NCBI RefSeq assembly: GCF_006345805.1
Contig: NW_021826527.1
Location: 1 to 12,727 of the forward strand
Origin: Octopus sinensis
Taxonomy: Eukaryota
Length of the DNA: 12,727 nt
Direction of reading: 5' to 3'
The translations under genes and the position numbers were made by a program. Positions 259 through 9,541 of the stretch are shown in pieces (position 1 is the first letter of the stretch; each line of letters starts with the position of its first letter). The notes beneath the pieces are model-generated. The model saw only the letters and a list, made by a program, of their open reading frames with translations. It was not told the DNA's origin and did no database searches.

Positions 259-432
259 AAATAATAAATATTAGGGAATAATCCAAATTTACAGGAAAAA
301 TCAGATTTAGGATAAATCCAGTTTTATAGTAAAATATTATAAAATATTATTAGAGACAAAACCACTATTTTTGCAAAACAAACAGGAAAGACTTAATCAA
401 TACATAAAATTTTAATAAATAGTCAAAAACCG

Positions 433-476
433 CCACTTACAATCGTTTCTTGTCTTGATCGACAATCTTCAGGTGG
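433..476 (-). ncRNA. Minimal type I hammerhead ribozyme (inverted copy, one extra A after the GUA)
   Basis: Minus strand reads CCAC CTGAAGA TTGTC gatcaa GACAA GAAAC gatt GTA a GTGG. Confidence 0.7.
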
Positions 477-528
477 ACTTCCAATAATTCAGTCATTATG
501 AAGTAATTTGACACTGAATTATGGAAGT

Positions 529-571
529 CCACCTGAAGATTGTCGATCAAGACAAGAAACGATTGTAGTGG
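529..571 (+). ncRNA. Minimal type I hammerhead ribozyme
   Basis: Stem I CCAC(529-532)/GTGG(568-571); core CTGAAGA(533-539); stem II TTGTC-gatcaa-GACAA(540-555); GAAAC(556-560); stem III loop GATT; GUA triplet 565-567, with predicted cleavage 3' of A567. Confidence 0.8.
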
Positions 572-816
572 CGGTTTTTTTGACTATTTATTAAAATTTA
601 TGTATTGATTAAGTCTTTCCTTGTTTGTTTTGCAAAATAGTTTTGTCTCTAATATTTTTATATATATATATATTATAGTCCTTTATACGTTAATTATTTT
701 CATGCTTCACCCTAAAGGCAGCCGTCAAGCTGGAGCACTGCCACTGTAATCACCCCCTTTAATGGCCAGTTCTATGTGATTGGCTTTGGTGAAGTGTGAG
801 TTCGACGCTGCTGCCC

Positions 817-1782: not shown

Positions 1783-1935
1783 TATACATACATACATGCA
1801 TACACACATACATACATACAAACATACATACATACATACATACATACATACATACATACATACATACATAAATACATAAATACATACATACATACATACA
1901 TACATACATACATACTTGCATACATACAATCATAC
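1783..1935. repeat. (TACA)n tetranucleotide microsatellite
   Basis: Direct reading. It explains the MYVC-repeat ORFs. Confidence 0.95.
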
Positions 1936-1978
1936 GTACAAAATCCCACGTGGAAAAACGCTGACAAAAGTAGTGTGC

Positions 1979-2027
1979 ATATATATATACAAACTTATAT
2001 ACACATGTATATATATAAATATATTAA

Positions 2028-2058
<31 letters not shown>

Positions 2059-2150
2059 TTATTCATATACATATATATGTGTGCATATGTGTGTGTGTGT
2101 GCATACATATATGTATATATATATATATACATATACGTACATGTGTGTAT
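1979..2150. repeat. Degenerate (TA)n/(TG)n microsatellite
   Basis: Direct reading. Confidence 0.9.
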
Positions 2151-2544
2151 GACAACATGCATAGAAATTAGTATGTATATATTCAACACACACACTGACA
2201 CACAGTTGTACTGGCGCACAATACGCATTGCAGCATGCAAGAAAGATTTCGCTCAAAATGGATTTGTTTATATATCGCTACGTATAAAAGTGGATACGTA
2301 ATTGGATATATTATGTAATACAGGATAAATTTTCTTCTCACTTATAACGGAAATTATATTTATTATATAAGGTTTGTGTGTGTGTGTGTTGGTCTATGTG
2401 AGCGCGTTCCTATTCACGTGTTTCTATAAAGGCGCGCGAATTTTACACGTCGACATATACTTGGGCATATGTGCAAAACGTACTTTTGTATAAATGTTAG
2501 AAATATATGTCTACGTACGTAAGCATGTGTCTCTGCTTTGTGTT

Positions 2545-2591
2545 TATATATATGTATATAATATATGTTATATGTGTGTATATATTTATAT

Positions 2592-2639
<48 letters not shown>

Positions 2640-2804
2640 ATCGATAGCTGGATGCATATGGGCGTCTATATGTTCTGTATATGTACAAACAAATACACGC
2701 ACATATCTATGTGTCTCTAGAATATACCATTTTAAAGAAACATTCCTGTGAAGTTAATGTTCTTTTCCATTATTTCAATATCGCTTATACGTGCGTGTGT
2801 GTGA

Positions 2805-2838
<34 letters not shown>

Positions 2839-3027
2839 ATATTTGTTTTTATTCAAAATTATACTACCAAACAAATTTAAATGTAAGTGTTTAGCTAAGA
2901 AATATAAAGCTATTAATTTTCGAAAATCTTTCAAAAGTAATTCTCCAATATATTTTCGGATACAAGCAATATTATTATATATATATACATATATATGATA
3001 TATGCATTATATATATATATATATATA

Positions 3028-3070
<43 letters not shown>
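2545..3070. repeat. Cluster of simple repeats: (TA)n ~2545-2641, (TG)n ~2790-2838, (TA)n ~2970-3070
   Basis: Direct reading. Confidence 0.9.
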
Positions 3071-3071
<1 letters not shown>

Positions 3072-3530
3072 TTTATTTATTTATTGCATATACTACTTCA
3101 CATTTTATTTAGTGACGCAATTGGAGGCACTCTAGCGGCACACGAAGACTAGGCTTAGAATAAATGTGTTACTACTCTATACATAACACTACTTTTTTTC
3201 GCTTAATTGCAATTTATACCTGTATGATCGTATTATCATCTCTTTCAATCTCTCCTTCTCCCTCTCTCTCTCTCTCTTTCTCCCTCTTGTTATGTGCGTG
3301 TATATGTGCAAGGGGGGGTGAATTTATGTGTTTGTGTTTGTCTGTGTGTATGTGTGTGAGAGTGTTGTGTACAAAACGTTGTTTGAAGTTCAGCATTTGC
3401 AATTGCTTTACGTAAAATTTCATTAAATGTTTGTTCTGGCCAGCGATAGAGCTCTTTGTAAAATTCTTCGTTGTTAAATCGTATGAACAAACGCACACTA
3501 ACACGTATATATTAATAATGATAATAAATA

Positions 3531-3682
3531 ATATTCCTTTTCTTTTAGGCACAAGACCCAGCGCTTTACTGGTACTTTCTTTGTCAACCCCGCGAGTTAA
3601 AGGCAAAGTCGTCCTCGGCAGAACATTAACTCAGAACATAAAGACTGACGAAATGCCTCTAAGCATTTCGCTCTGCGTGCTA
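3531..3682 (-). mobile_element. tRNA-derived SINE family A, copy 1 (5'-truncated, internally deleted)
   Basis: Shares blocks AAAGGCAAAGTC..CCTCGGC, AACTCAGAAC.TAAAGAC, GACGAAAT, AAGCATTTCG and CGTGCTA with the copies at 3686, 3921, 4128 and 9321. Confidence 0.8.
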
Positions 3683-3685
3683 GAG

Positions 3686-3904
3686 ATTCCTTTCTTTTCT
3701 ACTCTAGGCACAAGGCCCAAATTTCTGGGGAAGGGGCCAGTCTATTAGATCGACCCCAGTATGCAACTGGTGCTTAATTTATCGACACCGAAAGGATGAC
3801 AGGCAAAGTTGACCTCGGCAGAACTTGAACTCAGAATATAGATTGACGAAATACCGCTAAGAATTTTGCCCGGCGTGCTAACGATTTTGCCAGCTCGCTG
3901 TCTT
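3686..3904 (-). mobile_element. tRNA-derived SINE family A, copy 2 (near full length)
   Basis: Minus strand: A-box-like TGGCAAAATCG, B-box-like GTTCAAGTT, then core GCCTGTCATCCTTTCGGTGTCGATAAATTAAGCACCAG (resembles the MetaSINE-type conserved core, from recall) and tail ...GGGCCTTGTGCCTAGAGTAGAAAAG. Confidence 0.85.
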
Positions 3905-3920
3905 AATACTAGTAATAATA

Positions 3921-4124
3921 ATATTCCTTTCTACTAAAGGCCCAAGGCCCGAAATGTTGAGGGGATGGGACTTGTCGATTATATTGACCCCGGTGTTTCA
4001 CTAGTACTTAAGTTATCGACCCCGAGAAGATGAAAGGCAAATTAAATCTCGATGGAATTTGAACTGAGAGAGTAAAGACAGGCGAAATACCGCCAAGCTT
4101 TTCGTGCAAATGATTCTGCCAGCT
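3921..4124 (-). mobile_element. tRNA-derived SINE family A, copy 3
   Basis: Colinear with copy 2. Minus-strand TGGCAGAATCA and GTTCAAATTCC boxes; core GCCTTTCATCTTCTCGGGGTCGATAAC. Confidence 0.85.
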
Positions 4125-4127
4125 GGA

Positions 4128-4300
4128 ATGGTTTCAAATTTTGATAGAAGGTCAAAAAGGTCGAAGGAGGGTGTAGGTCGATAACATCGACCCCGAAATG
4201 AGGTAAAGCAAAGTCGAACTCGACGGAGTTTGAACTGAGAATGTAAAGACGGACGAAATACCTGCTAACTGTCTGCTAGCGATTCTCCCATCACGCTGCC
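4128..4300 (-). mobile_element. tRNA-derived SINE family A, copy 4 (different 3' tail)
   Basis: Blocks ATCGACCCCGAAA, GCAAAGTCGA, TTTGAACTGAGAATGTAAAGACGGACGAAATAC and GCTAGCGATTCT are colinear with the other copies. Confidence 0.8.
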
Positions 4301-4378: not shown

Positions 4379-5607
4379 GCACGTAACAAGGTGTTAGCTA
4401 TAAATTCCTTAGCAGTTCCAGTTGTTACTTATAGCTACAATGTGTTGAACTGGAATATGAGTGAAGTAAAAAATATAGATAGAAAAATACGCAAGCTGCT
4501 GAGTTGTAATAGGATGCACCACCCAAAGCAGACGTAGATCGCCTTTACCTTCCCAGAGCCCAAGGAGGTCGAGGTCTGATCCAATTTGAACTAGCTTACA
4601 AAACAACCACAATTGGACTGGCCAAATATCTCGAAATATCGAATGACTGGATGCTAAAGCTCGTGGAAAATCACGAGAGACGAAAGAAGCTTCATACTAT
4701 CATCAAGGAAAGCAAAAAATTTGCTATTGATCTCGTGCAGGATACCCAAACTGAACAACCCGAGGGAAGTACGGCAACTATTGTTGCAAAGAAGGTGAAA
4801 ATGATGGCAATGAAGAATGCGCACGAGCAATTGGCTGATAGGTGGGAGGAGAAACCTCTGCACGGCAAATATGTGACCCGCAGCAAACAAGCTGATGTTG
4901 ACCAGAAGCAAACCCATCAGTGGCTGCGGAGCTCAGGGCTAAAAGCAGAGAGCGAAGGTTTCATCCTGGCTGCTCAAGACCAAAGCCTATTAACCCGGAA
5001 CTACCAGGCCAATGTGATGAAAAATGGAGCAGACCCAAAATGCCGATTCTGCAACGACATAATTGAAACAGTGGACCACCTAATCTCTGGATGTAAAGTC
5101 TTAGCACCAGTGGAGTATAAATTAAGACATGACAGAGTTGGTCAATATCTCCACTGGCTAATAAGTCGGCATTACAATATCAAAACTGCCGACAAGTGGT
5201 ATAATCACCACCCTGTGGCTGTAACTGAAGGAGAAAATGTAACCATTCTGTGGGACTTTCCAGTACATACAGACCGAACCATCAAGGCCAATAAACCAGA
5301 TATTGTTGTGAAAGACCAAAACAATAAAGTTTGCTTATTGATCAACATGAGCATCCCCTGTGATCATAATATCTCAGCGAAAGAGTTTGACAAGCTCAGA
5401 AAATATAAAGACCTACTCATTGAAATTGAGAAAATGTGGCACCTCAAGGCGGTTACAATACCAGTGATCGTAGGAGCACTAGGAATGATCAAGAAGGGAA
5501 CCGAAAATTATATGAGAATGATCCCTGGCTTACCATCCCTGCAAGAAGTGCAAAAGATTGTCTTAACTGGTACATCACACGTATTGAGAAGAGCATTGTC
5601 GATGTGA
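4379..5607 (+). pseudogene. Partial RT thumb-CCHC-RLE polyprotein, with a frameshift near 4526
   Basis: One frame from 4379 reads ...IDRKIRKLLSCNRMHHPK. A 1-nt loss then shifts to ADVDRLYLPRAQGGRGL (from 4528), in frame with ORF 4651..5607. Confidence 0.85.
4651..5607 (+). CDS. C-terminal 318 aa of the R4/Dong-like retrotransposon protein (zinc knuckle plus PD-(D/E)xK restriction-like endonuclease); not an independent gene
   Basis: Motifs KPLHGKY, AAQDQSLLTRNY, CRFC-x8-H-x4-C (from 5041), RHDRV, ILWDF, KPDIVV...LLINMS, KLRKYKDL, PVIVGALG. Confidence 0.85.
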   Translation: MLKLVENHERRKKLHTIIKESKKFAIDLVQDTQTEQPEGSTATIVAKKVKMMAMKNAHEQLADRWEEKPLHGKYVTRSKQADVDQKQTHQWLRSSGLKAESEGFILAAQDQSLLTRNYQANVMKNGADPKCRFCNDIIETVDHLISGCKVLAPVEYKLRHDRVGQYLHWLISRHYNIKTADKWYNHHPVAVTEGENVTILWDFPVHTDRTIKANKPDIVVKDQNNKVCLLINMSIPCDHNISAKEFDKLRKYKDLLIEIEKMWHLKAVTIPVIVGALGMIKKGTENYMRMIPGLPSLQEVQKIVLTGTSHVLRRALSM

Positions 5608-9320: not shown

Positions 9321-9541
9321 ATATTTCTTTACTACCCACAAGGGTCAAACAAAGAGGGGGCAAACATGAACAGGCAAAGGGATTAAGACGATTATATCGA
9401 CCCCAGTGCGTTACTGGTACATAATTTATCGACCCCGAAAAGATGAAAGGCAAAGTTGACCTCGGTGGAATTTGAACCCAGAACGTAAAGACAAGCGAAA
9501 TACCTCAAAGCATTTCGTCCGGCGTGCTAACGTTTCTGCCA
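9321..9541 (-). mobile_element. tRNA-derived SINE family A, copy 5 (third tail type)
   Basis: Minus-strand TGGCAGAAACG, GGTTCAAATTCC and core GCCTTTCATCTTTTCGGGGTCGATAAATTATGTACCAG. Confidence 0.85.

Follow-up and report, generated by a model that had tools for sequence, protein, structure and literature searches.

A foldback near the left end of the window (the whole 12,727-nucleotide stretch of Octopus sinensis DNA analyzed here) is likely to be a dead-end, twin-primed pair of spliced-leader copies made from one RNA of a Penelope-like element (PLE). Its arms consist of exon 1 of the parent element joined exactly to exon 2, with the 1,802-nucleotide (nt) intron absent, and we are close to certain that they originate as copies of the spliced leader of a Hydra-clade PLE. 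The foldback comprises the following features.

227 to 260, no strand: left (TA)n target tract, assigned from the sequence and from arms across the family, which end in (TA)n.
261 to 504, minus strand: long arm, a spliced leader that begins at the start site (504), extends to the long (tail) end and matches parent exons 1 and 2 joined.
261 to 338, minus strand: tail, present in the long arm only, between the short and long 3' ends; AT-rich, with approximate boundaries.
433 to 476, minus strand: type I hammerhead motif carrying an additional A where cleavage would occur.
486 to 504, minus strand: copy of exon 1 (19 of 23 nt, four bases absent), with an intron-less join to exon 2 at 485/486.
504, no strand: head-to-head junction, seen in the sequence as one T common to long-arm position 1 and short-arm position 7.
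504 to 660, plus strand: short arm, exon 1 positions 7 to 23 (504 to 520) spliced to exon 2 (521 on), extending to the short 3' end.
529 to 571, plus strand: type I hammerhead motif, laid out as in the Hydra hammerhead table in the available excerpts of PMC8557442.
659 to 674, no strand: right (TA)n target tract, assigned from the sequence.

The donor and acceptor used as reference for the join at 485/486 are those of parent L142 (1854/1855 and 3656/3657), and the junction class at 504 is also present at loci L031 and L115. The first-pass annotation had described inverted arms carrying outward-pointing hammerheads at 529 to 571 (+) and 433 to 476 (-). Both descriptions hold, the arms aligning over ~165 bases at ~92% identity with differences that are nearly all indels. 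The arms are not equal in length, however, as the minus arm carries ~80 extra tail bases (261 to 338). Apart from the window itself, nothing matched the right flank at more than 84% identity, which left no empty site for comparison. This flank (672 to 815) is an older repeat, 74 to 84% identical to many loci (101 candidates). Elsewhere in the window, a 364-amino-acid open frame (4513 to 5607, +) gave a weak zf-RVT match (E = 0.0015, below the cut-off) and is, by its motifs, presumably the C-terminal portion of a non-LTR element whose endonuclease is of the restriction-like type. Diverged short dispersed repeat copies, SINE-like by appearance, lie at 3599 to 4300 and 9389 to 9536 (families D18 and D20).

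The plus motif combines a 4-bp stem I, a CUGAAGA core, a 5-bp stem II and a self-complementary stem/loop III, with the cut predicted 3' of A567. It matched a type I descriptor once, compared with 0 of 20,000 shuffles of the arm. The minus motif has the extra A and fails the same descriptor, such that the earlier claim of two full hammerheads is retained for the plus strand but not for the minus strand. This extra A was found in 1 of 178 distinct arms and is a mutation or sequencing error. An Rfam search, proposed earlier as a check, returned no hammerhead match in the whole window at E<=1 or in 515 to 600 at E<=10. A pattern for the family's hammerhead matched the genome 1,973 times and its reversed control 0 times. 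The duplex of the loop III 8-mer was calculated at -5.8 kcal/mol; in a second family (see below) this 8-mer is a perfect palindrome (-10.0 kcal/mol). Hammerheads of this type are described as inactive as monomers and in need of dimer formation in the excerpts of PMC4209133.

In the 2.7-Gb genome assembly (G000), where the arm is a young dispersed repeat, exact matches numbered 502 for the spliced junction and 1,185 for the unspliced acceptor, both counts being lower bounds given indel errors, while controls gave 0. About 30% of the exact-match exon 2 junctions were spliced, and the loss of the intron is the exact GT..AG loss that characterizes a processed retrocopy. The same GT..AG joint (1854-3657) was also present in contigs of public run X15, a run of unrecorded kind that is possibly the source of the assembly. 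Among the runs listed for the stretch from promoter through exon 1 into the intron, none was recorded as RNA. Contigs of runs guessed to be RNA, the run type being a guess, covered the intron and exon 2 and had no splice joint, which counts neither for nor against splicing. At the L143 centre (G000:C1:59513800-59513890), the two arms share an acceptor lying 9 nt upstream of the normal site; in parent L142 this acceptor is TG and thus non-canonical.

The ends of the arms are equally regular. Two 3' end points are fixed across the arms, at leader positions 176 and 269, and (TA)n follows each. The 5' limit is also fixed, as among 30 loci drawn from 109 exact matches only L041 extends into parent upstream sequence. 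The start site was placed from copy ends and an initiator-like motif. An extra G precedes position 1 in 20 of 35 arms, where the parent has a C. It is only suggestive of cap copying, because in ~15 of these 20 arms the G can be accounted for by the sequence of the partner.

Parent elements were sought with the upstream stretch of L041 as the query (903 candidates, 40 scored, 30 fetched). In 29 of the 30 fetched matches, the first 23 leader bases were followed not by the hammerhead but by a GTAAGT- or GTATGT-type donor, the sole exception being L041's own site. Exon 1 of the parent comprises these 23 nt, and the two 3' end points fall at leader positions 176 and 269 of the joined exons. Parent L142 (G000:C2:87901501-87911500) is laid out as follows.

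1832: initiator-like start.
Up to 1854: exon 1.
1855 to 3656: 1,802-nt GT..AG intron.
3657 on: exon 2.
3666: hammerhead.
3884: tail end.
3940: ATG, followed by a frameshifted open reading frame (ORF).

In L142 and related parents, the block of promoter, exon 1 and donor occurs three times at a spacing of ~0.8 to 1 kb.

Translations of the parent ORF contain DKT, a reverse transcriptase (RT) core, CxCX5C, YIG, CxxC (CYLC) and CxH (CRH). The RWK position reads KWK in the parent and RWR in homolog P0001. A model of the 287-residue core (pLDDT 81, 12-row alignment) was obtained, and the best Foldseek match of the RT core model was telomerase (E=2.8e-6). The ORF's C-terminus is 35% identical to that of homolog P0002, GIY-YIG occurs in 26 to 50% of the members of the Atlas neighbours of P0001, and a protein from Octopus bimaculoides aligns with the parent ORF at 65%, covering 29% of the query. 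Neither the parent ORF nor its two homologs gave an RT or endonuclease family in Pfam and PDB sequence searches, and no intact parent ORF was seen. RT and endonuclease are separated by an asparagine-rich insert, a feature also reported in rotifer Penelopes. The parent family carries a hammerhead in its pLTR and inserts at (TA)n. Judged by its motifs, the parent fits the definition of a Hydra-clade PLE in the excerpts of PMC8557442. The PLE origin suggested by the first-pass annotation was thus confirmed and narrowed to this clade by the motifs, the telomerase-like RT model and the C-terminal YIG-type endonuclease. The label of an ordinary inversion scar, however, misses the spliced arms and the fixed start.

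A related second family (334 exact matches) keeps the hammerhead core and has a changed loop II. Nine donor matches were obtained for it, of which three were unrelated sequence and one lacked a hammerhead within the stretch examined. The five parents have the donor 1.1 to 1.3 kb upstream of the hammerhead and the same exon-intron layout as the first family. Among 30 fetched matches, 5 had an unspliced acceptor and most others had exon 1 joined to exon 2. Five further loci (L190, L191, L219, L265 and L266) belong to a sister subfamily with a different exon 1 sequence, apparently spliced and paired too.

It might be argued that spliced RNA was not copied repeatedly at all, the intron having been lost once in the DNA of a source element or the palindrome being an assembly artefact. 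The window contig is indeed unplaced with numerous homopolymer indels, and L041 is an intron-less copy that retains upstream parent sequence. However, two families and several haplotypes have the exact GT..AG join, L143 shows an alternative acceptor form, varied foldback joints occur in contigs of a public run, and the asymmetry of long and short arms is unlike the pattern of chimeric reads. We consider this explanation very improbable and retain the copying of spliced RNA.

The pairing of the arms was analyzed in a sample drawn from the first 100 listed spliced junctions. These represent 65 sites, of which 63 were analyzed (a solo long arm, L028, was lost to de-duplication and one site was unfetched). 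Head-to-head pairs were found at 55 sites and solo arms at 8 (6 short and 2 long). All pairs but one, L041, joined a long (269-nt) to a short (176-nt) arm, the count of 54 including two short arms whose alignment runs into the TA tract. No long+long or short+short pair occurred among the 55. Likewise, 10 of 12 unspliced inverted pairs picked by eye were long+short, while one extended into the ORF and one was complex. The truncated arm of a pair may be the long or the short one, and 6 of the 8 solo arms are short; hence, the short site starts cDNA by itself.

This last point bears on a single-cDNA origin from spliced RNA, whereby a cDNA starts at the tail, reaches the 5' end and snaps back, and the endonuclease trims the copied strand at 176 before it is joined to the target. 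Such a route makes both the long+short pairing and the sharing of variants between arms obligatory, and the commonest centre resembles a 2-bp snap-back. Self-priming and endonuclease resolution of the tail have also been proposed previously (PMC3846280; excerpts of PMC8557442). Yet foldbacks with the commonest centre have the intact 5' end on the short arm in 5 cases and on the long arm in 7. In L112, L126 and L157 the long arm is present only from positions 171 to 192 onward, while the short arm is nearly whole. Solo short arms and long-arm tail remnants would therefore require later deletions. A palindrome centre can lose sequence asymmetrically once inserted, but overall we regard the snap-back as unlikely and favor two cDNAs started separately on one RNA.

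Partner arms share their variants. At position 112, both arms carried the minor variant in 8 pairs (1.0 expected) and 0 of 62 pairs were discordant; at position 158, both were minor in 17 pairs (4.4 expected) and 2 of 63 were discordant (p<1e-4 for each position). Ten rare variants were shared between partners, 9 of which were absent from 49 unspliced arms, numbers too few to decide their source. Two loci (on C2 and C11) carry a rare two-variant haplotype in all four arms, and their centres and flanks differ. A-to-I editing was rejected as the cause of the A>G variant that they share, as both also share a T>C change. This haplotype points to a source locus that exact searching of the assembly did not recover. 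A shared haplotype is no proof of a single RNA molecule, as it would also be explained by a single active source locus per cell, by gene conversion between arms or by assembly polishing.

The centres, in contrast to the arms, are variable: the 50 foldbacks compared (two tandem loci enter this number twice) show 31 kinds. Where a kind of centre recurs, it does so at short microhomologies, the haplotypes differ, and the intact arm may be the long or the short one. Between the arms, L010 has a 218-nt inverted copy of flanking sequence and L022 a 161-nt direct copy. Variable centres combined with a shared arm haplotype indicate that each palindrome was made at insertion. On the long-arm side of L167 (200 to 760), a unit that begins at leader position 113, passes through the tail and reaches the ORF start is repeated in tandem; the jump point is identical both times, and the arrangement may reflect a circular or repeatedly jumped template. 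An earlier reading of this site as a 21-nt filler was rejected in favor of the tandem unit running into the ORF.

The first-pass annotation had also raised the possibility of an amplifying palindromic or ambisense element. A non-autonomous element of this kind (retrozyme- or MITE-like), amplified as a unit and using its two ribozymes, would account for hundreds of near-identical copies (0.6% substitutions), for centres that recur (7, 6 and 5 copies) and for whole foldbacks in tandem at L011 and L014. The centre is not inherited with the copy, however, as recurring centres cross haplotypes and one haplotype has different centres at C2 and C11. Furthermore, foldback copies lack a promoter and an intron. 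At L011, L012 and L014, two to three whole foldbacks lie in tandem with identical microsatellite spacers; these runs include the flanking microsatellite and are thus local duplications or assembly repeats. Nor are head-to-tail units with same-strand hammerheads, the arrangement typical of retrozymes, found in the sample, where 63 of 63 sites were head-to-head pairs or solo arms. A self-amplifying palindromic element is already largely refuted, and we give it hardly any credence.

The predicted folding of the transcripts also argues against use of the ribozymes within the hairpin. A transcript of 256 to 669 folds at -216.7 kcal/mol. Imposing the hammerhead fold on the plus transcript costs 75.8 kcal/mol, and the pairing probabilities of the hammerhead stems are <1e-19. 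On either strand, the antisense arm is transcribed ahead of the sense ribozyme, and no folding of the ribozyme is predicted in a through-transcript because the antisense arm comes first. The hammerheads in foldbacks are accordingly modeled as passengers, which are not expected to fold in such transcripts. The competition between hairpin formation and self-cleavage suggested earlier appears weak, given this order of arms, a cost of ~76 kcal/mol and a single motif per strand, of a type described as needing a dimer. Any function of the motif is probably confined to the parent element.

We return to the twin-primed pair of spliced-leader copies as the likely origin of the foldback. In the proposed sequence of events, the element protein, probably a dimer, would cut both strands of (TA)n. 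The two cut ends would prime cDNA on one spliced RNA, at 269 for one end and at 176 for the other, and both cDNAs would run to the capped 5' end. The cDNA ends would then be joined by end-joining repair through 0 to 8 nt of microhomology or a short templated fill. Priming in the unspliced downstream repeat of the transcript would yield long, intron-containing copies, whereas priming on the spliced leader would copy only 176 to 269 nt, without upstream promoter, intron or ORF. Since spliced-leader copies lack all three, they are likely dead ends. Intron retention in PLEs would then act as a filter on which copies propagate and would not reflect an inability to copy spliced RNA. More broadly, the foldbacks could be an in vivo record of the Penelope cycle, in which a dimer sits on one capped, spliced sense RNA with one subunit per start site and one cDNA per break end, a reading that we regard as evenly balanced between right and wrong. 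For a Poseidon PLE in vitro, the excerpts of PMC11167929 describe both strands as cut and extended, two internal start sites that bound the tail, and a predicted dimer. The two start sites are used there without strand preference, and the strict long+short rule is therefore not explained by that work as excerpted.

Spliced retrocopies are an unreported and mechanistically telling product of an ordinary element class; no report of spliced PLE retrocopies was found in the literature searched, with subscription papers, Repbase and Dfam outside that search. Exactly spliced copies, numbering in the hundreds and found in two families, indicate copying of spliced sense RNA, with loss of promoter and ORF from the copies. 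Such RNA can then serve as a template for Penelope-type elements, which are noted for intron retention. Self-priming on an antisense template was proposed in PMC3846280 for head-to-head palindromes and intron retention and was left open; that paper likewise states as open whether the template is sense or antisense and how PLEs keep introns, and the significance of this retention is stated as unknown in the excerpts of PMC8557442. The spliced copies favor a sense template over the antisense-template model. From the one-long, one-short rule follows a sharp prediction for in vitro work with the PLE system already available. Where animal genomes have hammerheads paired on opposite strands, these should also be interpreted with caution, as they can be by-products of insertion and not regulatory devices. 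If a dimer does act on one RNA, the tail, the head-to-head inversions and PLE-wide intron retention would be explained in one step, and an antisense template would be excluded for the Hydra clade. PLEs would also supply hundreds of perfect 175-bp hairpins to a lineage with heavy A-to-I editing.

Several elements of this picture are already known, namely, inverted 5'-truncated pLTRs, tails, (TA)n targeting and opposite-strand dual hammerheads. In processed pseudogenes, the intron is lost exactly in the retrocopy, and in LINE-1 twin priming, two cDNAs are made from two target ends. The octopus foldbacks differ from both in the absence of poly(A) priming. Unlike in LINE-1, their cDNAs copy one RNA stretch and thereby form an outward-facing palindrome instead of an internal inversion.

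The closest relatives are the Hydra-clade PLEs. As excerpted from PMC8557442, they share with the octopus element DKT, CxCX5C, CxxC, CxH and a C-terminal YIG-type endonuclease, as well as a 3'-proximal hammerhead, insertion into (TA)n, inverted 5'-truncated copies and a tail that is optional. However, the families listed there are <~3 kb, whereas the octopus unit repeats at ~7.9 kb and has a 1.8-kb intron in the leader and three repeats of the promoter region. The octopus hammerhead also differs from that of Hydra-1_Obim. PLEs retain introns and no spliced copies are reported in those excerpts, in contrast to the octopus family. Drosophila Penelope and Chlamys-3 also have a leader intron, which is described as retained. 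Drosophila virilis Penelope has a start site inside the pLTR with an intron shortly downstream (excerpts of PMC2377424), and its hammerhead adjoins the intron 3' end (excerpts of PMC4209133), as in octopus. Most Penelope transcripts are spliced; its 75-nt intron is nevertheless kept in genomic copies (excerpts of PMC2377424), compared with ~30% spliced junctions in octopus.

Poseidon PAc in vitro, as excerpted from PMC11167929, is alike in having two internal start sites that bound the tail and in the cutting and extension of both strands, and hammerhead cleavage is unnecessary for its insertion. It belongs to a different clade and has a tail of 30 to 40 nt versus ~93 nt in octopus; the excerpts describe neither a one-site-per-end rule nor a spliced template. 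Dual minimal hammerheads in Schistosoma resemble the octopus pair in lying on opposite strands (100 to 700 bp apart) and in their self-complementary helix III; they are taken as truncated PLEs, have low activity and need dimers (excerpts of PMC4209133). A spliced-RNA origin, a fixed 5' limit or a long+short rule is not described for them in these excerpts. Animal non-LTR retrozymes are likewise PLE derived and noncoding with a type I hammerhead (Li et al., bioRxiv 10.64898/2026.07.22.740005, as excerpted). These are head-to-tail tandem units, whereas the arms of the octopus foldback meet head-to-head and the foldback does not multiply as a unit.
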